The notes under the pieces are model-generated. The model was not told where the DNA came from. It did no database searches and was given only the letters and a program-made list of their open reading frames with translations. This document shows, one piece after another, positions 10,366 through 25,891 of a stretch of DNA of 27,386 nucleotides. Position numbers and translations under genes: made by a program. Source of the stretch: Thermoplasmata archaeon (lineage in GTDB: Archaea > Thermoplasmatota > B47-G6); the NCBI GenBank assembly GCA_003663585.1, contig QMTU01000001.1, positions 1 through 27,386 on the forward strand. The letters run 5' to 3'. Position 1 is the stretch's first letter; the number at the start of each line of letters is the position of its first letter.

Positions 10366-11097
10366 CTATGGTAAATAGTGATCTAGGAATTGGCGTACTG
10401 TATCGAGATGAACAGCGGATGCCCATAGTCCCCAGACTGGGTGTTGTGGTCCATTCTCTACAATAACGCCTACGAGTTCGCCTTTGCTATTAAATACTCC
10501 TCCACCACTGTTACCATAGTAGATGCTGCCATTAACCAATAACCATCTTGTCTCTGTATTATGGTAACTTGCTACGTTTTCCTTTGCTACTGTACCATGA
10601 GATATAATATCTTCCACTCTAGCACCATATCCTATGATCCATACAAAGTCTCCAACCTTTGGTGGAGATGAGGCTAGTGGAGCTACTAGCTTTAGTGGAG
10701 TAGTATCTGTGGTCATAAGGAGGGCTAGGTCGTTCTTTCTGCTTACTGCAATCGCAGTGACTCTATACTTGTCGTCTCCGTTGAACGAAATAAATCCATA
10801 TGGCATAATTGTCTGGTCTTGACGATTTATTACGCAATGTGCAGCTGTAAGAACAAAGATCCCTGAACTGCTTGCACTCACAACTGTTCCTCCGCAATTG
10901 GCTCTATTAAGATTATATACAACTACGTTGTATTCTACTAGCCGTTGTGGAACAGCAGGACGTAAGAGAGAAGGGGATTCATTAATAATTGGATTAGGCT
11001 GGACTTTGTGGATTGTGAGAGCACGGTGATCGCAGTTGCACGACAATACAGCCGCAAGCAGAAGAAATAAAAGCAGTTTTCGAAGCACTGTTATCAT
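10366..11097 (-). CDS. Exported trypsin-like serine protease (probable lipoprotein)
   Basis: LTAAHC, NDLALL, GNSGGG triad motifs; N-terminal hydrophobic signal ending VLSC. Confidence 0.85.
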   Translation of the reverse strand: MITVLRKLLLFLLLAAVLSCNCDHRALTIHKVQPNPIINESPSLLRPAVPQRLVEYNVVVYNLNRANCGGTVVSASSSGIFVLTAAHCVINRQDQTIMPYGFISFNGDDKYRVTAIAVSRKNDLALLMTTDTTPLKLVAPLASSPPKVGDFVWIIGYGARVEDIISHGTVAKENVASYHNTETRWLLVNGSIYYGNSGGGVFNSKGELVGVIVENGPQHPVWGLWASAVHLDTVRQFLDHYLP

Positions 11098-11121: not shown

Positions 11122-11931
11122 TTACTTATTATTATCATATATGTGTGTTGATGTCAATAGAGCTTTGGCTTCTGTCAGATATTCCTTCGTGTTGACATTC
11201 ACCAATCTGCCGTTTACTAATGCAATTCGGAAAGGATAGTATGTAAGATTTTGTCTATAGAAATCTACAAGCATATAAGAATCACGTACTGCACCTTTTC
11301 TTAGCATTTGCAGGGTTATATCTAGTTTTCCCAGTAAAGCTCCTATTTCTACAAATATGGGCAACCATGTAGGTAATGCTCTATCATGTAAACTAAGGAT
11401 ATCATTTGCGATTTCTAGAAGGGTGTATTCAGGATGTGGAGTTGAGAGAAGGAATGGTCCTTCTTGGAGTTGCCTCTTCGATGCTGTGAGTGGGGAGATT
11501 GCCGGAATCCAGGCAGGATTTGTATAATCTATTTTGTCGATATACCCGTTTTCTCCCAGTAGCTGTTCTAGGATCGATCTATCAAAGATATGATCTCCCA
11601 TCTGGCAGAAAAATGTTGAGTCATTACAGAGGTTTCTACAATATTCTAAAGCCGCTCCTAGGGCCGTTGCAGTACCGTTTTCATTTTTAACGCATACTAT
11701 ACGGCGATCTGCAAGCGGGATGCTGTTTACGTAGTTTTCAACCTCTTCTGCGCCGTATCCAGTGACTACTATAATCGGAGTATTGGGAGGTAAATATTCT
11801 GAAAGACGTTCTATTATGTGACCAAGCATTGGCTTTCCGGCTATCCCTACAAGCGGCTTAATACACTTATCGTCGCCCATACTTGTGGACATTCGGTCGC
11901 CTTTCCCTCCTGCCAGTATTACTCCTATCAT
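11122..11931 (-). CDS. Sugar-phosphate nucleotidyltransferase (NTP_transferase family)
   Basis: VILAGGKGDRM, KPLVGIAGKPML, VVTGY, MGD, NVNT. Confidence 0.8.
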   Translation of the reverse strand: MIGVILAGGKGDRMSTSMGDDKCIKPLVGIAGKPMLGHIIERLSEYLPPNTPIIVVTGYGAEEVENYVNSIPLADRRIVCVKNENGTATALGAALEYCRNLCNDSTFFCQMGDHIFDRSILEQLLGENGYIDKIDYTNPAWIPAISPLTASKRQLQEGPFLLSTPHPEYTLLEIANDILSLHDRALPTWLPIFVEIGALLGKLDITLQMLRKGAVRDSYMLVDFYRQNLTYYPFRIALVNGRLVNVNTKEYLTEAKALLTSTHIYDNNK

Positions 11932-11936
11932 GCTAA

Positions 11937-12599
11937 TTACTCCACAGAGATTTCATTTGTAAGCAAGTTATACTGTACATCCTTGTCGATTGGCAGTTCT
12001 CTAAGCCACTTTGCCATTGTTCCCGTCATTATGCCGGCAGCTACGTTACTACTGTAGATAGTTGTCTTTGCTGTGCATGATCCGCGATAGGCGTCTTCAG
12101 ATGAGAATAACGTAGTCCTGTAGTGGTTTTGGCTGTCAAGATTAAATACACTTAGCACTCTTAATACTTCTGCCGACATGCGGCCGTCGATAAAGAGTAC
12201 TGCTGTATTCTGTGTCGCAGTGAAGATTAGATCTCGAATATCCATATCATCTACACAGCAGAAAATAATCTCACCAGTGTTCATTCTCCGTCGAAAGCGA
12301 TCATTGACAACTTCTATTTCTACCTCGCTATTAATAGACTTAAGAAGCTCTGCTACTGCCTCTACTTTAGGTTTGCCGAGATCGCTTTCAAAGAATCCTT
12401 GAGCAGCCAGGTTACCGGTTTCGACTGTGTCAAAATCAATGAGCTGAATCTTAGGCACGCCCATAGCCGCTAACTGTATGGCTACTTGTCGACCAATCGC
12501 ACCGACTCCGATTACCGTGACAGTCTTATCTTGCAGTGTTTCTAGAGGAACCAGGTCCTTTTGCCGGCTATACCGTACCTCGGTATCAATTTCAGGCAT
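11937..12599 (-). CDS. ThiF/E1-like Ubl-activating enzyme
   Basis: RYSRQ, VIGVGAIG, IDFDTVETGNL, KPKV, CCVD, DGRM, candidate catalytic Cys in GSCTAK; start refined to ATG 12599. Confidence 0.9.
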   Translation of the reverse strand: MPEIDTEVRYSRQKDLVPLETLQDKTVTVIGVGAIGRQVAIQLAAMGVPKIQLIDFDTVETGNLAAQGFFESDLGKPKVEAVAELLKSINSEVEIEVVNDRFRRRMNTGEIIFCCVDDMDIRDLIFTATQNTAVLFIDGRMSAEVLRVLSVFNLDSQNHYRTTLFSSEDAYRGSCTAKTTIYSSNVAAGIMTGTMAKWLRELPIDKDVQYNLLTNEISVE

Positions 12600-13656
12600 T
12601 TTCTTTCTCCTCTTCAAAGACAACAATCTGGTTTTCGTCTACTTGATCCCGCGACACGGCTACCAAACGCTCATCTCTATCATAGTAGCATACATAATCA
12701 TCTATTTCGTTTTCCTGGATGTCCAGCTGCTGAAGCAGGATAAGCCTTTCCTCAATCGGTTCATCTTCCAACTCGTCTCTCAGAGACCAGAAGAATTCTG
12801 GCATTTCGTCATTCGCCAACTCTTCTTCCTCTTCTTCTGCAAAATTACTAGCCCAGCTATATAGATCGTAGTCTACAGCCTCGTCAAATTGTGTCGACGG
12901 AGGGAACTTTCTAGTGCCATATAAAGGGCCATAGGGTTTGGTAGAATGCCAGTCGGGTATTCCCTTTGGCATATTCATATAGCCGTGCTTGGAATAAGTA
13001 TTATGCGTAGTCAGAAATATTTCCCGCTTCTCAATATTCTTGTCATACTCTGCTTTCCAGGCAGCATGATCACTGGCCGCGAAGGGTAAGCTCCAATCAA
13101 TTTTAACCTTAAGATCGAATTGGGCTTTTATTCCGGTACCATATTGCAATCTTGCAGTCATCTCCCCACCTTTGCCAAGAATTGCCATGACTGACCAATC
13201 GCATTTTCCGAACTTCTCTCTAAACGTTTTCTCGTCAGTACCGCTTGGATTGGCACTCATACCAGGATGCGTGTGAAACCAGATCCTTCCAAATTCATCT
13301 GGTTTTCGACCAGCATCTACCTGGTCTTCGAAGAAGTCGGCAATACCAATGTCGTCGAATTCAACTGTTGCAGCCGTGGTCTTTTGCTTGACCGTAAACA
13401 GATCAATTACAGCCAGAGGATCATCAGATCTGGAGATGCCGAATGCGCCGACTTCTGTGTCGCCTAGATCGCGCAAGTATGTCAATTTAGCCCATACATA
13501 CGGGGAAAGCCGTAGCTCGGGGTTGTGTGAGACTGATATCTTACTCGAAACTGTCGGAGTTTGTATTTTCCAAGACTCTTTTGTCTGTGGTCTGTTATCA
13601 ACTTTGGCAATAAATCCCAACTTTTCCTTCTTCTTCTTTTTCTTCTTCTTGCCCAT
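12592..13656 (-). CDS. JAB/JAMM metallo-isopeptidase with acidic C-terminal extension
   Basis: TEVG...WFHTHPGMSANPSGTD matches E...HxHx7SxxD; start refined to ATG 13656 (GGAGG RBS). Confidence 0.88.
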   Translation of the reverse strand: MGKKKKKKKKEKLGFIAKVDNRPQTKESWKIQTPTVSSKISVSHNPELRLSPYVWAKLTYLRDLGDTEVGAFGISRSDDPLAVIDLFTVKQKTTAATVEFDDIGIADFFEDQVDAGRKPDEFGRIWFHTHPGMSANPSGTDEKTFREKFGKCDWSVMAILGKGGEMTARLQYGTGIKAQFDLKVKIDWSLPFAASDHAAWKAEYDKNIEKREIFLTTHNTYSKHGYMNMPKGIPDWHSTKPYGPLYGTRKFPPSTQFDEAVDYDLYSWASNFAEEEEEELANDEMPEFFWSLRDELEDEPIEERLILLQQLDIQENEIDDYVCYYDRDERLVAVSRDQVDENQIVVFEEEKENA

Positions 13657-13669
13657 AAGGATCCTCCTG

Positions 13670-14428
13670 TTATTTTTGACTAGAACAGTAATGACACAAT
13701 GGTCGTTCGTTATAGTAACACGATGACTGTTCGCTACAATCATCACTTTCGTATATTACGCAACCTTCACATAGCTCATCACCACACCGATCGCAATATA
13801 TAACATCTTCGGCGGGAATAATGTCTCCACAGTCGCAACAAGTAGCCCCGTCCCATAAGTGTACATGTATGTATGCTTCAGTAGCTTCATACGATCGAAG
13901 TATGCTTTCCAGAATATCCACCATACTAAACACATCATTTCTATTTGCCGCGCTTCTTAATGCATTCGTGCCACGTCCTGTACATACTATTCCTGCCGGA
14001 TCAACGTGTGGATGAAAATATCCAGAGCCATTCGAGAAGTATGGGGTAATAGGATATGCATGAACTCCCAGAAAGCTTTTGTCAATTCTAAAGGGACCTA
14101 TTCCCAAGTAGAATGGACCAAAGTCTATGCCGTCAAAAACAATACGACGTGTCGGTCCAACGAGAATGAAGTCGTCTTTGTATATACTATAGACGTTTTG
14201 ATGGTGGGCAAGAAACACTCTCTTTGTCTTTGCTAATTCTATAAGATCCTCTCCAATACTTGCAGAAATAGAATCAATTGGCGTTTCGGTAAACCAAGCA
14301 CCAAGCTCGATCTGATCTTTTATTCGTGAGACAACTGCTTTTTTGGAAGAAGAAGGAAATATTTGGATGAAACGCTCGAGATGCTTAATCTTATTGTAGG
14401 TGAGCCCATCGTTAGGAATGGTTAGCAT
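13670..14428 (-). CDS. E2/UBC-like protein with C-terminal Cys-rich Zn finger (paralog B)
   Basis: YFHPHVDPAGIVCTG has the spacing of the E2 motif HPNxxxxGxIC; multiple CxxC in the C-terminus. Confidence 0.72.
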   Translation of the reverse strand: MLTIPNDGLTYNKIKHLERFIQIFPSSSKKAVVSRIKDQIELGAWFTETPIDSISASIGEDLIELAKTKRVFLAHHQNVYSIYKDDFILVGPTRRIVFDGIDFGPFYLGIGPFRIDKSFLGVHAYPITPYFSNGSGYFHPHVDPAGIVCTGRGTNALRSAANRNDVFSMVDILESILRSYEATEAYIHVHLWDGATCCDCGDIIPAEDVIYCDRCGDELCEGCVIYESDDCSEQSSCYYNERPLCHYCSSQK

Positions 14429-14465
14429 CGGAATCCTCCTGGTAACTGGATTCGTACAAATACAA

Positions 14466-14504
14466 TTTTTGGAGTGCTGACTGCCACGTAACAGTCAGCA
14501 CTCC
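14466..14504 (-). other. 13-bp perfect intergenic hairpin between Ubl and E2-B, followed by A5 on the sense strand
   Basis: GGAGTGCTGACTG-CCACGTAA-CAGTCAGCACTCC (14471-14504). Confidence 0.75.
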
Positions 14505-14516
14505 TGTTGTTTGAGA

Positions 14517-14747
14517 CTAAGCTCCCTGAACCTTCGTAGGGGTGACGGTCATCCGATCGCCAGGCTGCAGCGCATAGCTGGCAGTTACCTCCTGGCGATT
14601 AACACGGATGAGGTAGTCAGCAGGACTGGCACCCTCGCCCATCTCCCGGAAGAACAGCTGGGATGCTGTGGTGCCCTCCTCAACTACCTTTTCGCCGGCG
14701 AATCCAGCGCCTTCGTTGTTAATGAAGCTTACACGGATCTCAGGCAT
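14517..14747 (-). CDS. Ubiquitin-like beta-grasp protein (Ubl-1), C-terminus KVQGA
   Basis: 76 aa, ThiS/MoaD/Ub-like pattern YLIRVN...LQPGDRMTVTP; penultimate Gly; strong AAAGGAGG RBS. Confidence 0.85.
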   Translation of the reverse strand: MPEIRVSFINNEGAGFAGEKVVEEGTTASQLFFREMGEGASPADYLIRVNRQEVTASYALQPGDRMTVTPTKVQGA

Positions 14748-14793
14748 TTTTTCCTCCTTTTCTTTGGGTTATAGCCTGATAGAGCCAGGACTT

Positions 14794-16035
14794 CTATTCA
14801 TCTAGAAATCCAGTCCTTCTTTGAACGGTCGATGTCTGTGCCTCTGTCTCTGGCATAGAAATATTTGATATAACTTCTTCATTTTCTATTGGTTTATCCA
14901 AGCTCATAATCAAATCACATATTTTAGCCACTCTTTTTGATCTAGTCTCTTCAATTTGCTTAGCACACTCATGCTTTTTGGAAGACATATAGTGTCTTCC
15001 ACAGAATATTTTCCCGCAGATTTCACACTTTACCGCATACCTGCTTCCTCGATGGTCTGGGCAAATAGTTTTGCCGCATACGCTACATGTGCTCTCTTCT
15101 GCGCATGACTTACACATAGGGCTGTGACAGTAGCTGCATTTACTGGTTTGTTTTCTATCAACCAGCTCCTTGCAAACAGGACACTGAATAGTATGCCAGT
15201 GTACTAATTGTACATAAGGAGACTCTTTGTTATATGTGCGCAATAGGCTATCTAATATTGCAACAATTTCATATAACTCAGCATTATTAAGTTTATCTCT
15301 AATAATTCTAGCTGCATCACCGAGACATATACGACCATCAGTAGAAACGTGGGGATGGTAAAATCCTCTATGTCTTCCGCTGGCGTATTTTGGTGTGGCA
15401 GCCGCCGCTGTTACTTGCGACGAAGATCGGCCAGGATCTCTGGAAAATCCTATATGTAGATAGAACTTACCGAGATCTACTTGTACAGTACGCTTCTTGC
15501 CACCTAGAGTCGTTCTGTATTTTAGCACTATTGGCTTATGTAACAAAATAGATAGCCTTAAGATATATCGAGGAGAGTTAGTGCATATTTCCTGAACCTC
15601 TCCAAAATCTCTTAGTACAGCCGGCAAATCCTCTCTTACCTTCGTAAGTACCTTAGCTTCTCTAATCGGTGCGCACAGTCGTTTTTGCGCGGCCTGAAGA
15701 TGACGTTTTGTATCATACATAACGCCCTCAATACTGTGTATTCCTTTTATAATACCTTCTAGCATACCGCCAATCTCATTATAGAAGATCGTAGGGACAC
15801 TGTTGTTGGTCTCTGTAATCTCCAATATCTTCTGGTATAATGGTGCAATGTCGGATATGTATTTGCGAAACTCGTCGTTGGCGCTGAGTAAACCTTTGTG
15901 ATCGATAATAGATGATAGACTTATTTGGGGCGTCTTGGTAGGTGACGGCAGGTCCTGCAGTAGTTTATCAATATCAGATGAGCTTGGTTGAGTTCCTGCA
16001 TTTTGGATTTGTGCGCCAAAGACCTCATTTGCCAT
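14794..16035 (-). CDS. E2/UBC-like protein with N-terminal helical region and C-terminal Zn fingers (paralog A)
   Basis: FYHPHVSTDGRICLG; C-terminal CPVC, CSYC, CKSC, CSVC, CPDH, CEICGKIFCGRH...HEC; start refined to ATG 16035. Confidence 0.78.
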   Translation of the reverse strand: MANEVFGAQIQNAGTQPSSSDIDKLLQDLPSPTKTPQISLSSIIDHKGLLSANDEFRKYISDIAPLYQKILEITETNNSVPTIFYNEIGGMLEGIIKGIHSIEGVMYDTKRHLQAAQKRLCAPIREAKVLTKVREDLPAVLRDFGEVQEICTNSPRYILRLSILLHKPIVLKYRTTLGGKKRTVQVDLGKFYLHIGFSRDPGRSSSQVTAAAATPKYASGRHRGFYHPHVSTDGRICLGDAARIIRDKLNNAELYEIVAILDSLLRTYNKESPYVQLVHWHTIQCPVCKELVDRKQTSKCSYCHSPMCKSCAEESTCSVCGKTICPDHRGSRYAVKCEICGKIFCGRHYMSSKKHECAKQIEETRSKRVAKICDLIMSLDKPIENEEVISNISMPETEAQTSTVQRRTGFLDE

Positions 16036-16062
16036 TATATCCTCCATGGATGTCTTAGTTTA

Positions 16063-16442
16063 TGGAGCTGGCGGGAGTCGAACCCGCGTCCATGATAGAA
16101 TCCACCAACTTCATACGACCATATCACCTGGTTCTATCTTATATAGCGCCTTTCCCAGGATTTCCTTTGGCGCTCCCTCTATCGCGCACCACCGGGCTTT
16201 TTGGACTAGCATGGGCTAGGTACCCGGAACCCGCTACTTTGGTTACCAGGGCGAGCGCAGCCCTGATGGCTGCTTACGTTTACACGTAAGCGCGGCTGCC
16301 AGACATGGAAGCCATGTCGGCAACCGAAGCCATGAATGCGAGCGAATCGTCGGCATTTGTGAGATGGGCCTTTTTAGAGTGGCCTGCCCAGCCACTAGTC
16401 GTCCATTGGCTTTTTCTAGCATGTCGAACCCTGTTCAGCCCC
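16063..16442 (-). ncRNA. ssrA: tmRNA (380 nt), CCA not encoded
   Basis: 5' GGGGCTGAACAGGGTTCGAC and 3' GGACGCGGGTTCGACTCCCGCCAGCTCCA; 7-bp acceptor stem with G3.U; helix-2 complementarity (ATG-TAGAA/TTCTA-CAT, ACGAC/GTCGT). Confidence 0.95.
16280..16354 (-). other. tmRNA tag reading frame: ADDSLAFMASVADMASMSGSRAYV*
   Basis: Resume codon GCC after ACAAAT; stop TAA in the loop of hairpin GCTTACGT-GTAA-ACGTAAGC. Confidence 0.8.
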
Positions 16443-17084: not shown

Positions 17085-17339
17085 CTAAACGGAACTACCC
17101 GTCTCTAGATCCCATAGTGGAAACTTTACAGAAGTAACGGTTACTCGATCGCCGGGCTGTAACCTATGATCTATGGTTATATGTTCGCGATTAACACGAA
17201 CAAGGTACTTGGCGGGGTTGGCATTTTTTCCCATTTCTTGGAAGAATAGATCTGATATCGTTGCACCTTTAGTAATTACCCTTCTGTTAGCAGATGAATT
17301 GCCATTGTCGTCGGTAAGTATTACATAGATTTCAGACAC
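17085..17339 (-). CDS. Second ubiquitin-like protein (Ubl-2) with extended non-Gly tail
   Basis: Clear paralog of Ubl-1 (LFFxEMG, AxPAxYLxRVNR, LQPGDRxTVT); GTG 17339 behind GGAGGAG aligns with the Ubl-1 start; an in-frame ATG at 17393 is an alternative. Confidence 0.75.
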   Translation of the reverse strand: MSEIYVILTDDNGNSSANRRVITKGATISDLFFQEMGKNANPAKYLVRVNREHITIDHRLQPGDRVTVTSVKFPLWDLETGSSV

Positions 17340-17400
17340 CTTCTCCTCCTGTGCGGGGATAGACATTTCTCCGGCTTGTTCAGAGATTTTCATCACTTCT

Positions 17401-18899: not shown

Positions 18900-19139
18900 T
18901 CACTCCTCTTCGACATATACAGCACCTCCCGTAAGCCGGAAGATTGCAACTGGAACAACTACATCTGGATGCGTTTGATCCATCAGATAACGCCAACGTA
19001 CTTCCACTGGTACGTCATCGCGTAGTACAGAATATCGTTTATAGAACGGAGGTAATGGTAGATCAATAATGCGTACATCTGTATACCCATCTTTCCAAAG
19101 GAAGAGTGCTTTTATAGTTGTGTTAGGGTCTGGAAGCAT
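18900..19139 (-). CDS. Hypothetical protein
   Basis: Start refined to ATG 19139, TAATG-coupled to the E2-C stop. Confidence 0.55.
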   Translation of the reverse strand: MLPDPNTTIKALFLWKDGYTDVRIIDLPLPPFYKRYSVLRDDVPVEVRWRYLMDQTHPDVVVPVAIFRLTGGAVYVEEE

Positions 19140-19888
19140 TATAGTCCTCTGTGTGAAGCACAGGCGCTGCAAAAGTGTCTGTCCTTATTAATTATGGCAC
19201 AACGATTACAGATCGGCACCATGCAGCTACAGCAACGTTCATCATTTGCAACTATATTGCCACAGTCTGCACAAGAGTATCCATACCAGTTACCAATTGG
19301 AAAATAAGAGTCTTCTGCGCAGTATGACGAAAGTACGGCCTTGGCAATATCAAGACAACTTACTAAATCATTTCTTCTTGCACTTTTAACAAAGGAGTCG
19401 ACTCCTCTTCCTAAACAAATACTACAGGAGACACTAACGTGGGGATGGAATCGTCTGGGTTCTGGTATTGCATAGACAGGAGATACTGCATATGCTATAG
19501 CACCATAGGACATAGTTGCTCCTCTTGGAGGAGAGGGTGTTATCATAAACCCAATACCTACGAAGAAACGCCCAAGGTTTACTTCGCTAAAAACAATATC
19601 TTCCTTAGTAGGGCCTCCTATAAGGCTAATTACATCGAAGGGTGGCCTGTTATTATATCGGCGTACACCGATAGCTATCTTCTTATACATTTCTAGTAAG
19701 GCGGAGAGGTTTGGCTTAATCTTTGTTTGTACAATCCAAGAAACTCTACGCCTACAGATCGGATATAGCATTGCTGCGCGGATCGCTGGCTTAGCTATTT
19801 GCAAATCATCTTCATTTTCTATGATCAAAAACTGGTTACCCATTAGAGTAATAACGGGGAGGTTCCTGGTTTTTCCTCGAGAGCTCAT
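19139..19888 (-). CDS. E2/UBC-like protein with C-terminal Zn finger (paralog C)
   Basis: RFHPHVSVSCSICLGRG...RNDL...DI...L.SY...W.G..CADCG, colinear with paralog B; start refined to ATG 19888. Confidence 0.7.
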   Translation of the reverse strand: MSSRGKTRNLPVITLMGNQFLIIENEDDLQIAKPAIRAAMLYPICRRRVSWIVQTKIKPNLSALLEMYKKIAIGVRRYNNRPPFDVISLIGGPTKEDIVFSEVNLGRFFVGIGFMITPSPPRGATMSYGAIAYAVSPVYAIPEPRRFHPHVSVSCSICLGRGVDSFVKSARRNDLVSCLDIAKAVLSSYCAEDSYFPIGNWYGYSCADCGNIVANDERCCSCMVPICNRCAIINKDRHFCSACASHRGL

Positions 19889-19908: not shown

Positions 19909-20139
19909 TCAGAAGGCGTCTCTGGCTGCTATATCACCCGGACAGGGATTTGGGTCATCTGGCCAAACCCATTCTTCGCCGCGCAGCTCAAGTGTCCCCC
20001 GGCTACCGTCGGCATATACTATATGAGCTGTCGGCCGCGTGCCATTATATGGAATCTGGATTACAATGGAGCGTATGGAATAGGTGGATACTAGATCGCC
20101 AAGCTTTTCGCCAAGCTTCGTTAGATGGTGAATATCCAT
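19909..20139 (-). CDS. Hypothetical protein
   Basis: Start refined to ATG 20139 (AAAGGAG RBS). Confidence 0.55.
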   Translation of the reverse strand: MDIHHLTKLGEKLGDLVSTYSIRSIVIQIPYNGTRPTAHIVYADGSRGTLELRGEEWVWPDDPNPCPGDIAARDAF

Positions 20140-20152
20140 TGCAAGGTCTCCT

Positions 20153-20812
20153 TTAACGGAGTGCATCCTCAGTTACTTGTCTGATTGCTTTTACTGGGCA
20201 GCCATATAGCCATCCAGTTTCTGGCTCGCCACCACCCTGACGGTTAAATTGTGGGCCAAATTGACTGACTACTCCCACTAGTTTATTGTCGGAATCAAAG
20301 ATTCCTCCACCACTATTGCCATACCAAATAGTGGCATCGAATTGGTTTGCTATCATTCCGTAGTGATCTCTAACGTATATCTTACTTACAATCCCGTAAC
20401 TAAATGCATCACATTCTCCTGCGCCGCAGCCAGTAATCCAGACATCTTGTCCTACCTCCGGCTCTACTTTGGCTATCTCCGCACGCAGATTAAGGTTCAG
20501 GTCTCTAGGAATGCTTAAAACAGCGATGTCTGTTGTCTCAAAGCTGTCAATGGCAATAACTTCTACGGGATAAAGACTTCCGGTTGAGTCTTGCACGTAA
20601 AGCTGTACTGGAGGCCCATTCACGCAGTGTGATGCAGTGACTATTCCTCTGCTGGTTAAAGTTGTACCACAGATGGGACTGCTATAGTTTTCCATATATA
20701 ACGGGAGGTTATATTCTGCGAGGAGATAGAAGTTGGGTTTCTCGTTACCGGAGTAAACGGTAACGTTAGTACATGCAGACAGCATTATCAGTAGTGCCAG
20801 AAGATATTTCAT
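20153..20812 (-). CDS. Trypsin-like serine protease lipoprotein
   Basis: Lipobox LSAC; VTASHC, TDIAVL, GNSGGG. Confidence 0.85.
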   Translation of the reverse strand: MKYLLALLIMLSACTNVTVYSGNEKPNFYLLAEYNLPLYMENYSSPICGTTLTSRGIVTASHCVNGPPVQLYVQDSTGSLYPVEVIAIDSFETTDIAVLSIPRDLNLNLRAEIAKVEPEVGQDVWITGCGAGECDAFSYGIVSKIYVRDHYGMIANQFDATIWYGNSGGGIFDSDNKLVGVVSQFGPQFNRQGGGEPETGWLYGCPVKAIRQVTEDALR

Positions 20813-23772: not shown

Positions 23773-24353
23773 GTTCTATCTCCTTCCGGAAGCTGATTGT
23801 TTCCTATTATGTGCTCTTCTCTACATAAATCAAAGCATATCTGAGCGCGCCTAATATATCTGGCAGCTTCCTCATATGCCCTCATTAGTTGGTCTTTGTC
23901 TATGTTGTCAGTCTTTATTGTCACATTACCAGGAGCCCTAGTATGTAGAAATTCCTCAAGCTCTATTCCTTGTGTATCATCTATATTGTATGGCTCGCTT
24001 CTTGTTTCCTGGGGTCTAGTGAGAGCTCTTTTCTTACATGTCTCCGTGTTAGCGACTAGCTTGACAGTATAAACATCATGATCAAGATTTTCAAACAGCT
24101 CTCTAAGTCGCCACAAGACCCCAGTAGACTCGAGTACAAAATACTTGTTGGTATCTTCTAAAAGATTAGGCAATGCTGCATGCCATACATAGTCCTCTAT
24201 AGCAGAGGAAGATGAATGGTACTTTAACATTCTAGCTGTATGTTCTCTTACTTCGTCTATTGCAATGTGTGTCCATTCATTGAATTTCCCGACGAACCAT
24301 TTTGCAAAGGTCGTCTTGCCCGACGCAATAGGGCCTATAAGATTCACTATCAT
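23769..24353 (-). CDS. P-loop kinase (nucleoside/polynucleotide kinase-like)
   Basis: N-terminal Walker A GPIASGKTT, IDEVR, lid motif CKKRALTR. Confidence 0.75.
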   Translation of the reverse strand: MIVNLIGPIASGKTTFAKWFVGKFNEWTHIAIDEVREHTARMLKYHSSSSAIEDYVWHAALPNLLEDTNKYFVLESTGVLWRLRELFENLDHDVYTVKLVANTETCKKRALTRPQETRSEPYNIDDTQGIELEEFLHTRAPGNVTIKTDNIDKDQLMRAYEEAARYIRRAQICFDLCREEHIIGNNQLPEGDRT

Positions 24354-25116
24354 TTTGCATCTTCCTCCAATAGGGAACAGCTTTCTGTAGGAAACTCCTT
24401 ATTTCTTCGGTAGATACGAAGAAGGAGGCTCTGGTTGGAGCCATAGGAGAACCCTCTCTGAGCAACTCTGCACAGAAAATTCCTATTAGTGTGTCTGTCT
24501 GTTCCTCAAATATAGGACTCCCGCTGCCGCCGGGACCTCCAATAAACTGTGCTTGAACAAGTTCAAACTTGTTCTCAGTATTCAGATATCTTAATCCAAC
24601 TTTGCTAAAAAGAGTGATAATTTGGCTAATCCTGTGAGCTCGCAAAAGCATATATATGCGTGTCTTTGGAGAAGGAGTTTTAATTGCAAGAGTTACTGTA
24701 GGAACATAATTATCCTGAAGGTTAATGCTGAAGAGTGCAAGATCTCGGTCGAAATCAATTCCTGCTAATCGGAAATAAGTTGAGTCTTCTGCCAAGATAC
24801 CAGAGCAAAGCCTTCTCTGCTTTACAAGTGAGGCTAAATATTCTATTCGAGCCTTAAAAGTTGTACGGTCTATTCGGCCAAGCCTTAAGAGGTCAACAAG
24901 CTTGCTAAGTAAAAGATTATAGTTACAGGAATGGGCGACGCTTAATATCATACACCTATGCTGTTTGTTACATCCTAGTATAATACCATTAGTATAATGC
25001 CTGTTCAGAAACAACATTCCGCGTACACTGTCAATATTATCCCTGAAGCTATTTGCGTAAGATGTAAATGGAAATATTACTAATATTATCAAGCTCAACT
25101 TACCTAGGAGTTTCAT
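24277..25116 (-). CDS. Divergent exported trypsin-like protease
   Basis: Signal peptide; LSVAHSC, RDLALF, PGGSGSPIF; start refined to ATG 25116. Confidence 0.65.
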   Translation of the reverse strand: MKLLGKLSLIILVIFPFTSYANSFRDNIDSVRGMLFLNRHYTNGIILGCNKQHRCMILSVAHSCNYNLLLSKLVDLLRLGRIDRTTFKARIEYLASLVKQRRLCSGILAEDSTYFRLAGIDFDRDLALFSINLQDNYVPTVTLAIKTPSPKTRIYMLLRAHRISQIITLFSKVGLRYLNTENKFELVQAQFIGGPGGSGSPIFEEQTDTLIGIFCAELLREGSPMAPTRASFFVSTEEIRSFLQKAVPYWRKMQNDSESYRPYCVGQDDLCKMVRREIQ

Positions 25117-25132
25117 TACTACTCCCTTCTGT

Positions 25133-25891
25133 TTATGGCAACTCACCATTCAAAAATTTTTGGCAGTTAAACAGCTTTTGTCTGGTTATGGTAGTATATT
25201 TATCCATTGCTCTCTCCGCATATGCCTCTGCCATGCTGCCATTATTATAGCGTCTCCAGGCAAGTCTGTGGCTGTATTCATATCTTTGAAGTAGATACAT
25301 ATAATGGAGGAGAAATACTTTCGTAGCCTCTAAAGGATCTAACAAAAGTCTCACAAGATATTCGTCGTTTTCTGATGCAATTGATAACACCTTGGTTTGT
25401 CTGCCAGTAAGGCGGACAGTATCTAGTTTGAACTGGTATATTCCCACTTCGCCAGCACTACCAATCATGAACTCATACATTGTCTCTTGCTCTGCTGTTA
25501 CCAGAGCGGAGATACACAAGTCCAGCTTTCTCTCGGGGCTAATACTGGGAAATACCTGCTGAATCGCTTGCGGGATTGCCTGGATAAATGTAGGTATTCT
25601 ATCGTACCGTCGTCTCATACTCAGCCGCCAGGATATTGCATTTTCGCATGCTGCTTGCCAGTCATCTTCCGTAGGAATATAAATGTATACTCTGCTGCCA
25701 GCCAGCAGTTTGCGGGGAAAATTGTTTTGAACTAGAAGATCTTTGACACGATATGGAGACTTGTAGTATTGAATGGAAATACCTCTCCATGTTTCTCCTT
25801 GTTGGACGTCATGTACTATGCAGCGTGCCTTTGCTTCTAGCGGGAGAACAAAGAGCAAGCTCAATAAGGCTTTTACCGCGCCATAGCGCAT
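25133..25891 (-). CDS. LysM + lytic transglycosylase (SLT-like) protein
   Basis: Signal peptide; LysM-like HDVQQGETWRGIS...N...LLAGSRVYI; QET (catalytic Glu), GEVGIYQF, WRRYNNG. Confidence 0.7.
   Translation of the reverse strand: MRYGAVKALLSLLFVLPLEAKARCIVHDVQQGETWRGISIQYYKSPYRVKDLLVQNNFPRKLLAGSRVYIYIPTEDDWQAACENAISWRLSMRRRYDRIPTFIQAIPQAIQQVFPSISPERKLDLCISALVTAEQETMYEFMIGSAGEVGIYQFKLDTVRLTGRQTKVLSIASENDEYLVRLLLDPLEATKVFLLHYMYLLQRYEYSHRLAWRRYNNGSMAEAYAERAMDKYTTITRQKLFNCQKFLNGELP

Follow-up and report, generated by a model that had tools for sequence, protein, structure and literature searches.

Contig QMTU01000001.1 (C1; 27,386 bp, analysed in its entirety and called the window below) belongs to a metagenome-assembled genome (MAG) of a Thermoplasmata archaeon, which comprises 211 contigs and 1.07 Mb and is 64.7% complete. 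The minus strand of C1 carries a cassette for protein conjugation by a ubiquitin-like protein (Ubl), namely five adjacent, co-oriented genes for two E2-like proteins (E2-A and E2-B), a Ubl (Ubl-1), a JAB/JAMM metallopeptidase and an E1. We regard it as probable, if well short of certain, that these genes form a complete Ubl-conjugation cascade of a large tailed Planctomycetota phage, that C1 is a mis-binned fragment of that phage, and that the cascade serves in conflict.

Organization of the cassette

All plausible genes of C1 lie on the minus strand, and the cassette is transcribed in the order E2-A, Ubl-1, E2-B, JAB, E1. Public gene calls for C1 yield the same five products. Upstream of them, a second Ubl gene (Ubl-2) and a third E2 gene (E2-C) are parts of the same conjugation system as the five-gene stretch. 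The seven genes are as follows.

14794-16035, minus strand: E2-A, 413 aa (gene call)
14517-14747, minus strand: Ubl-1, 76 aa, C-terminus TPTKVQGA
13670-14428, minus strand: E2-B, 252 aa
12592-13656, minus strand: JAB/JAMM metallopeptidase, 354 aa; AGGAGG lies 6 nt ahead of the ATG
11937-12599, minus strand: E1, a minimal ThiF/MoeB-type adenylation enzyme, 220 aa; Pfam ThiF
17085-17393, minus strand: Ubl-2, a Ubl-1 paralogue; start uncertain (17393 or 17339)
19139-19888, minus strand: E2-C, the third E2 paralogue, 249 aa; HPHVSVSCSIC and five CxxC motifs

For E2-A, position 16047 offers an alternative in-frame ATG, but it is the ATG at 16035 that GGAGG precedes. The reading frames of JAB and E1 share 8 nt (12592-12599). 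The original prediction, made from the letters of this DNA, had named these five genes with these products in this arrangement, including a 76-aa Ubl ending in GA and an 8-nt overlap of JAB and E1, and each of these points was confirmed. Its description of an E2-Ubl-E2-JAB-E1 operon holds as far as the five genes go, but the system is larger (it includes E2-C and Ubl-2) and the canonical unit has four genes, Ubl-1 to E1, with E2-A an extra paralogue ahead of that unit.

Predicted UBC-like core and zinc module of the E2 proteins

E2-B, which occupies the E2 slot of the canonical cassette, has N-terminal helices, a UBC-like core with the motif HPHVDPAGIVC (predicted catalytic residue, Cys149) and a C-terminal cross-brace zinc module with four CxxC motifs. 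E2-A has an N-terminal region of ∼160 aa, a UBC-like core with HPHVSTDGRIC, five CxxC motifs and an acidic tail; among its CxxC motifs is a weak AN1-like finger (Pfam zf-AN1, 3e-4, under the cut-off). All three paralogues, E2-C included, contain HPH-x7-C, whose spacing equals that of eukaryotic HPN-x7-Cys. When 1.8 billion proteins were searched, a profile of the three paralogues matched 2031 representative proteins at E≤1e-3, of which 904 reached E≤1e-10. A 90-sequence alignment showed H-P-H, the Cys seven residues later, the next Gly and three CxxC pairs to be invariant. The pattern HP[HN]-x6-9-C-x-G is found in all but a few of the E2 relatives, and relative L061 has a true HPN.

The original prediction depended on a UBC fold for the E2-like genes, and structure modelling supports one. 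An AlphaFold2 (AF2) model of E2-B, made from the 90-sequence alignment, had a mean pLDDT of 79.6, with values above 90 in the core (an alignment of three sequences yielded a model of pLDDT 40, which was not used). In an exhaustive structure comparison (VIA), ∼30 of the top 50 matches were E2, UEV or RWD chains that aligned over residues 59-194 (Z 5-6.8), and a Foldseek search with the model gave UbcH7/UbcH8 as the best PDB match (E=0.15). E2-A aligned with Pfam UQ_con (PF00179; E=0.0038) at 17.3 bits versus a cut-off of 27, with the match spanning the HPN-Cys region. Relatives of E2-B in the AlphaFold database come from planctomycetes and bear the automatic labels 'RING-type' or 'UBC core domain-containing'. 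Together, the modelled fold, the HPH-x7-Cys spacing and the sub-cut-off UQ_con alignment point to a UBC-like core.

Other searches with these proteins returned little. PDB sequence-profile searches with the E2 gave zinc fingers only and no convincing E2, and a word-based homologue search with E2-B matched only E2-B itself. The three-paralogue profile had zero matches in IMG/VR, as did tblastn with E2-A against 50,697 GenBank phages. In Pfam, NCBIfam and PADLOC, no model reaches its cut-off with the E2, Ubl or JAB of the cassette. Because it is absent from these three collections, the family, which numbers >2000 sequence clusters, is currently annotated 'hypothetical'.

The zinc motifs of E2-B follow the pattern CxxC-x11-CxxC-x4-CxxC...CxxC, which in the model would make an eight-ligand cross-brace for two zinc ions. 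Residues 193-252 superpose on the RIM, Slp4 and FYVE cross-brace fingers (rmsd 2.2 Å, Z ∼6; VIA), and profile searches matched the CesA RING, TRIM21 and the MID1 B-box. With strong support from motifs and moderate support from predicted structure, the E2s appear to be UBC-like domains fused to a RING/FYVE-like binuclear zinc module.

Predicted catalytic residues of E1 and JAB

E1 is a single 220-aa domain, without the ubiquitin-fold domain (UFD), inactive adenylation domain or inserted Cys domain. It matched Pfam ThiF (PF00899) at E=1e-28 (100 bits; cut-off 28) and the PADLOC E1-E2 models at 1e-18, and its PDB matches were MoeB (1e-11), UBA7, UBA5, BubCD and Cap2. The protein carries a GxGxxG loop and a conserved set of Asp and Arg residues; G40/G42/G45, D64, D66, N72, Q76, K87, D126 and R149 (open reading frame (ORF) numbering) are conserved in 36 of 36 sequences or nearly so. 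The candidate catalytic Cys, already noted in the original prediction, lies in GSCTAK at the position of the MoeB crossover loop and is kept in 35 of 36 family members.

In JAB, the JAMM core (about residues 60-200) lies between an N-terminal Lys8 tract and an acidic C-terminal extension of ∼130 aa. Its match to Prok-JAB (2.6e-5, 24.5 bits) fell just below the cut-off of 25, that to the PADLOC JAB model was 0.005, and its best solved relatives were Rpn11 and the Caldiarchaeum Rpn11-like protein, with a weak E of ∼0.02. The E...HxHx7SxxD motif that had been predicted to be intact is present as E...HTHx7SGTD, and E98, H158, H160, S168 and D171 (ORF numbering) are invariant in 33 of 33 relatives. 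Conserved and intact catalytic motifs are found in all parts of the cassette.

C-termini of the Ubl proteins

Ubl-1, whose start is preceded by a strong ribosome-binding site (AAAGGAGG), is predicted to be a ThiS/MoaD-like beta-grasp protein. It gave weak Pfam matches to Ub-Mut7C and ThiS, and a relative 59% identical to it is named 'MoaD/ThiS family' by NCBI. Ubl-2 is 47% identical to Ubl-1 (hidden Markov model (HMM), 2e-30). In its C-terminus, ...VKFPLWDLETGSSV, an insertion of five residues precedes the Gly, which is capped by three residues.

Throughout the Ubl family this Gly is invariant and always has at least one residue after it. An invariant, never-terminal Gly is the signature of a capped Ubl precursor. 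The residue after it is Ala in 55 of 56 cellular copies (tails, 1 to >5 residues), and A, S, P, E or G in phage copies. The ending of Ubl-2 (ETG-SSV) fits the capped-Gly pattern, and family tails past the Gly vary likewise; Ubl-2 has therefore probably kept its site of conjugation. GA as the mature Ubl end, the first reading, was set back by the G-[A/S/P/E/G] endings of the wider family; by analogy, cleavage by the JAMM enzyme after the Gly is favoured. Trimming of BilA at Gly97 by BilC provides a precedent for cap removal (Chambers et al., bioRxiv 10.1101/2023.09.26.559546).

These parts could in principle serve another chemistry, that of a sulphur-carrier or small-molecule pathway with a ThiS/MoaD-type thiocarboxylate and the JAB as maturase, in which the 'E2s' would be zinc-binding accessory factors. 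Such operons of JAB, ThiS and E1 exist (PMC1779556), E1 is closest to MoeB/ThiF by sequence, and the sole PDB match of the Ubl family profile is MoaD (weak, at 0.03). But E1 scores far under all NCBIfam curated ThiF/MoeB equivalog cut-offs, the neighbourhood contains no gene for a rhodanese, a cysteine desulphurase or a thiazole or molybdopterin synthase, and the Ubl is capped past its Gly, as in conjugated Ubls. Moreover, a UBC-like protein with an invariant HPH-x7-Cys always stands between Ubl and JAB. We consider a sulphur-carrier pathway very improbable.

Recurrence in Planctomycetota phages and integrated elements

With an E1 alignment as query, we searched species-representative genomes and IMG/VR. 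The genomes yielded 290 loci, often several per MAG, and gene order and taxonomy were read from the best 80 of these. Almost all of the 80 are in Planctomycetota MAGs (Pirellulales, Phycisphaerae, Sedimentisphaerales, Planctomycetaceae and others); 57 show the full Ubl-E2-JAB-E1 order, and the remainder look clipped by contig ends. IMG/VR yielded 34 viral contigs of 15-181 kb (E1 identity 30-58%), and an HMM map showed the same order in ∼30 of them. This recurrence indicates that the cassette arrangement is not due to chance. Six IMG/VR carriers have direct terminal repeats and ∼100% estimated completeness (48, 55, 60, 166, 168 and 181 kb), and one carrier is classed as a provirus. Terminase (TerL) was found in 10 of 27 IMG/VR carriers, and in 7 of 11 among those at least 90% complete. 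Five related cassette phages of 165-181 kb encode homologues of RNA ligase and DnaE, as found in C1 and in a second contig of the MAG, C2. In these phages (G044, G047, G048, G051 and G054), the DnaE homologue is spread over two or three separate open frames (∼620 and 780-870 aa) that lie several kb from one another, which suggests a split or intein-interrupted polymerase gene.

In Gimesia, the cassette reads Ubl-E2(Zn)-JAB-E1 and adjoins an integrase; the Planctomicrobium arrangement is the same. Both cassettes stand beside a phage-type integrase and a helix-turn-helix (HTH) regulator in long chromosomal contigs. The original prediction had likened the Ubl and E1 to those of Planctomycetota-type operons, and this resemblance is borne out by the 49-51% identity of Ubl, JAB and E1 to the Gimesia cassette (51% for Ubl-1, 51% for JAB and, for E1, 49% by BLASTP and 47% in the alignment). 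The cassette is a regular passenger of Planctomycetota phage genomes and integrated elements. The C1 copy has the traits of the family, namely the gene order, an E1 of ∼220 aa, an E2 with HPH-x7-C and CxxC motifs, and a Ubl with a K-x-x-G-A/x end.

The C1 copy is notable for its three E2s and two Ubls, as more than one E2 was found in only 3 of ∼117 loci. In the tree, E2-B and E2-C are sisters (support 97/92). E2 duplications are independent in three phage lineages, in which the paralogues within a genome are sisters (L061, 99/99; L069, 99/96). Zinc motifs per E2 range from 0 to 21 CxxC across the family, and it is in its N-terminal domain and zinc array that the protein varies. Duplication and zinc-array variation fit adaptive diversification of the targeting part, a pattern that would suit a substrate-selecting E2-E3 hybrid under diversifying pressure. 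Viral contigs L063 (2312-2977, 4136-6532) and L064 encode a 221-aa Ubl and an E2 of ∼780-800 aa. This Ubl may combine several beta-grasp domains or be fused at its N-terminus, and the proteins of these contigs indicate that family architectures vary widely.

Two kinds of gene recur near the cassette in 37 phage/planctomycete loci, although both are absent from the window: a classical AAA+ ATPase (PF00004 plus AAA_lid_3), within 8 kb in 10 loci, and a DUF3150-family protein, in 8 loci. Examples are given here.

L043, 14044-15723: AAA+ ATPase
L003, 4441-5937: AAA+ ATPase
L045, 14720-15736: DUF3150-like protein
L003, 5963-6904: DUF3150-like protein

The AAA+ neighbour raises the possibility that an unfoldase receives the tagged proteins.

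Parts of the system are also seen elsewhere. In the crAss-like phage cr85_1 (L041, MT774390.1, 2808-4696) and the Flavobacterium phage FpV4 (L042, 2737-4669), a JAMM protein (HSHx7SGxD) lies directly upstream of a ThiF-like E1 that is ∼30% identical to the C1 E1 and annotated 'thiamine biosynthesis protein'. The family HMMs detected no adjoining E2 or Ubl; hypothetical proteins of 370-420 aa lie just upstream of these pairs.

Origin of C1

The MAG itself is archaeal, as the PolD large subunit is present in it and in its relatives. Its sole tmRNA lies on C1, as follows, and its sole DnaE lies on C2.

16060-16442, minus strand: tmRNA, bacterial type (Rfam RF00023, 104 bits; ARAGORN)

In the MAG relatives, including some that are 98-99% complete, no tmRNA above threshold and no DnaE was found. 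Tetranucleotide usage groups C1 with C2, C18, C29 and C39 (r 0.87-0.96), apart from the core of the MAG (0.85). A bacterial tmRNA on C1 and a DnaE on its compositional twin C2, within an archaeal MAG, indicate that C1 is foreign to the MAG. In addition, the first 20 kb of the window showed zero resemblance to anything in same-genus genomes, and the E2 family was absent from the 40 MAG relatives searched. The cassette is therefore not a cellular defence island of the organism to which the contig was assigned, the finding on which the original prediction could have foundered.

The tmRNA marks the owner of C1 as a bacterium or an infector of bacteria, and huge phages are known to carry tmRNAs (PMC7162821). 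Other contents of the compositional group have a phage-like character. C1 carries an RNA ligase, an RlaP/CCA-type nucleotidyltransferase and many ORFans. C2 (∼25 kb) holds a one-strand replication module of primase-helicase, DnaE, Mre11-like phosphoesterase, UvsX-like recombinase, ribonucleotide reductase and Cas4-like nuclease. Both C1 (27 kb) and C2 (25 kb) are gene-dense, are transcribed in one direction and contain no housekeeping genes. C18 encodes an endolysin-like amidase, and C39 a 617-aa protein in whose nearest Atlas clusters Uroviricota make up 70-100%. DNA nearly identical to C1 was found in marine sediment and hydrothermal-vent metagenomes from ∼9 studies. Most likely, C1 is a mis-binned fragment of a large planctomycete phage, the link being indirect. 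The original prediction had spoken of a phage-like genome; what stands is that C1 is foreign to the MAG and that the cassette occurs in terminal-repeat phages with terminase, whereas C1 itself carries no virion gene.

Two sets of foreign contigs were seen in the MAG. The first (C1, C2, C18, C29 and C39; ∼76 kb) has bacterial-phage features (tmRNA, DnaE, primase-helicase). The second (C4, C13, C37, C46, C49 and C71; ∼52 kb) represents a tailed virus with terminase, portal, tape measure, tail fibre and PolB. C13 and C71 carry near-duplicate terminase genes; these two contigs were ruled out as parts of the C1 virus by their separate compositional group with PolB. The contigs with terminase, portal, tape-measure and PolB genes (C4, C13 and C71) probably belong to another virus. 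A species-representative archaeal MAG thus holds at least two sets of viral contigs. The 617-aa protein of C39 (L016, 1775-3628, plus strand) also superposes on the N-terminal part of bacterial MXAN_6230/SCO0854 Prok-RING_4 proteins (TM 0.71) and has TerD-like parts.

A carrier of another kind deserves consideration, because Bil systems of equal gene order are host defences (10.1101/2023.09.26.559546). C1 could derive from a planctomycete chromosome or a non-viral integrated element, with the cassette a host-side, Bil-like system for anti-phage defence or superinfection exclusion. The integrase-linked chromosomal cassettes of Gimesia and Planctomicrobium, the 290 genomic loci with often several per MAG, the single provirus in IMG/VR and the lack of a structural gene on C1 agree with such a carrier. 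Six carriers, however, are complete terminal-repeat phage genomes, and DnaE, RNA ligase and tmRNA are common to the C1/C2 element and the large related phages. The gene-dense, one-way layout of C1 and C2, without housekeeping genes but with RNA ligase, CCA/RlaP-type nucleotidyltransferase, primase-helicase and Cas4-like nuclease, likewise speaks for a phage. We judge an origin from a chromosome or non-viral element unlikely. As to defence, a phage-borne cassette could still protect against rival phages.

If the carrier is a phage, the targets might be its own proteins, with the Ubl system acting in virion or tail assembly or in the timing of maturation, like TAPI plus JAB of lambda and T1. Phage tail-assembly pairs of Ubl and JAB have been described (Iyer et al. 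2006, PMC1779556), and the cassette is stable in complete phage genomes. TAPI systems, however, are without E1 or E2, and the C1 cassette lies among early/auxiliary-type rather than structural genes. Copies in integrated elements show no virion genes nearby in the windows seen, and the divergent, duplicated targeting parts of the E2s suggest changing targets. A role of this kind appears more doubtful still than a chromosomal carrier.

Proposed mechanism and role

For the preferred reading, a conjugation cascade of a planctomycete phage, we envisage the following sequence of events. The JAMM peptidase would remove the short cap after the invariant Gly (G|A in Ubl-1, G|SSV in Ubl-2). The 220-aa E1, probably a MoeB-like homodimer, would adenylate the exposed Ubl C-terminus and probably also form a Ubl thioester on its conserved Cys. 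From there the Ubl would pass to the Cys of the UBC-fold E2s (HPH-x7-Cys). The N-terminal helical domain has diverged between the E2s, and each E2 also has a RING/FYVE-like zinc module fused to it; each would hence act as an E2-E3 hybrid that picks the substrate and ligates the Ubl; the same JAMM enzyme could reverse the mark. As E1 has neither UFD nor inserted Cys domain, the N-terminal helical region of the E2 may supply the docking surface. Three E2s and two Ubls would widen the target range of the phage. Its role is most likely a conflict function in infection, in which host proteins would be tagged for takeover or counter-defence, or the proteins of rival phages would be tagged. The roles put forward in the original prediction, in which host or phage proteins would be modified or a host Ubl defence would be countered, are likewise hypothetical.

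Several points weigh against this reading. No terminase, portal, capsid or tail gene was found on the 27-kb C1; composition is the sole link between C1 and the phage-like contigs; and the terminase of the MAG sits in a separate compositional group with its own PolB. Support for the E2 fold is moderate (Foldseek E=0.15, VIA Z <8, UQ_con below its cut-off); UQ_con gave no match for E2-B or E2-C and matched 1 of 90 relatives at E≤0.01. The fused zinc module may be a built-in E3, by analogy. The Ala found in 55 of 56 cellular copies means that the mature Ubl could end in Gly-Ala rather than Gly. Finally, the conjugation, targets and expression assumed for the C1 cassette are predictions.

A more specific proposal, possible but doubtful, is that large planctomycete phages encode a self-contained ubiquitination machine whose E2-E3 hybrids tag chosen host proteins, one target per E2 paralogue. 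If true, the machine would rank as the first 'writer' of ubiquitin-like marks that a virus brings to bacteria, and among the closest relatives of the eukaryotic E2-RING pairing in the prokaryotic world. If the phage marks host proteins, the cassette would represent a novel type of enzyme for viral takeover or counter-defence. The T7 kinase (PMC13645617) is one precedent among phages for modifying proteins to counter defences broadly. Marking of rival phages would amount to Bil-like immunity carried by viruses.

Neighbouring features in the window

The tmRNA lies between Ubl-2 and E2-A. Its 3' end is ∼25 nt before the start of E2-A, which leaves no room for a promoter of E2-A's own. The tag is long and unusual (24 codons ending in SRAYV; ARAGORN). 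A single module of tmRNA and cassette is unsupported, as the two are tens of kb apart in the tmRNA-bearing phages (2 of the 5 related 165-181 kb phages). An inverted repeat was also found within the cassette.

14471-14504: perfect 13-bp inverted repeat with 8-nt loop, directly past the stop codon of Ubl-1 and ahead of E2-B

With AAAAATTGTATTTGT following it on the coding strand, the hairpin does not qualify as a canonical terminator; it may form the 3' hairpin of an mRNA or act as an attenuator, and would thereby raise the ratio of Ubl to enzymes.

Downstream, the stop of E1 is 5 nt from a MobA-like/NTP_transferase gene (11122-11931), and this small gap suggests that the operon probably reads on into it; the MobA-like neighbour is not conserved in related loci. 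Three genes for trypsin-like serine proteases with signal/lipoprotein-like N-termini are present (10366-11097, 20153-20812 and 24277-25149, all minus strand). One is two genes downstream of E1, and another is two genes upstream of E2-C, with an 85-aa ORF (19909-20166) between.

Comparison with known systems

In line with the original prediction, which knew of no characterised phage-encoded version, the literature searched contained no publication on the cassette family or on a phage version of it; an earlier mention in Burroughs et al. 2011 is possible. PADLOC gave zero matches for the E2 or Ubl of the cassette. We compared the cassette with the prokaryotic systems that it most invites comparison with, beginning with BilABCD, whose types I and II are classes 6d and 6c of Iyer 2006 (features from Chambers et al. 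10.1101/2023.09.26.559546 and Iyer et al. 2006, PMC1779556).

Like Bil, the C1 cassette has the order Ubl-E2-JAB-E1, an E1 without UFD, and the form of a complete stand-alone cascade of prokaryotic conflict biology. In Bil the Ubl precursor is trimmed by the JAB at Gly, and the capped Gly suggests, by analogy, that the same would apply on C1. The Bil E1, in contrast, is multidomain (inactive and active adenylation domains, inserted Cys domain), whereas that of C1 is a single 220-aa domain. In the Bil E2 an HPN-type His is missing, and a conserved His comes after the Cys instead; the C1 E2s have HPH before the Cys and fused zinc. With its own RING-like finger, the cassette E2 looks more eukaryote-like than the Bil E2. 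The carriers differ as well, being phages and planctomycete elements for the C1-type cassette and defence islands of Proteobacteria for Bil. Bil, Bub and CBASS Cap2 are host anti-phage defences; here the same predicted chemistry is found on the other side, in complete phage genomes as large as 181 kb and in mobile elements across Planctomycetota.

The Caldiarchaeum-type operon comprises Ub, E1, E2, a small RING finger protein and an Rpn11-like JAB (Nunoura 2011; Hennell James 2017, PMC5654768). Shared with it are the classical E2 site (HPN/HPH, then Cys), a RING-like finger, an Rpn11-like JAB and a mobile, sporadic distribution. Yet the zinc module of C1 is fused to the E2, whereas the Caldiarchaeum RING is a separate protein, srfp. 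The C1 Ubl is ThiS/MoaD-like with a G-A end, not ubiquitin-like with GG, and the C1 E1 is minimal. E2-A, moreover, falls under the UQ_con cut-off (17 versus 27 bits). CBASS type II Cap2/Cap3 shares with the cassette only the E1 adenylation and JAB superfamilies and the predicted conjugation chemistry: what Cap2, an Atg7/Atg10-type fusion of E2 and E1, conjugates is a CD-NTase and not a free Ubl, and C1 has no cyclase or effector.

The cassettes of Planctomycetota have the same Ubl, E2-zinc fusion, JAB and 220-aa E1, with the C1 copy differing in that it lies on a phage-like contig and in the shortness of its E2 zinc modules (4-5 CxxC, versus up to 21 in other Planctomycetota-type cassettes). 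On sequence grounds, we assign the C1 cassette to an unnamed Planctomycetota/phage family among the prokaryotic Ubl conjugation operons.

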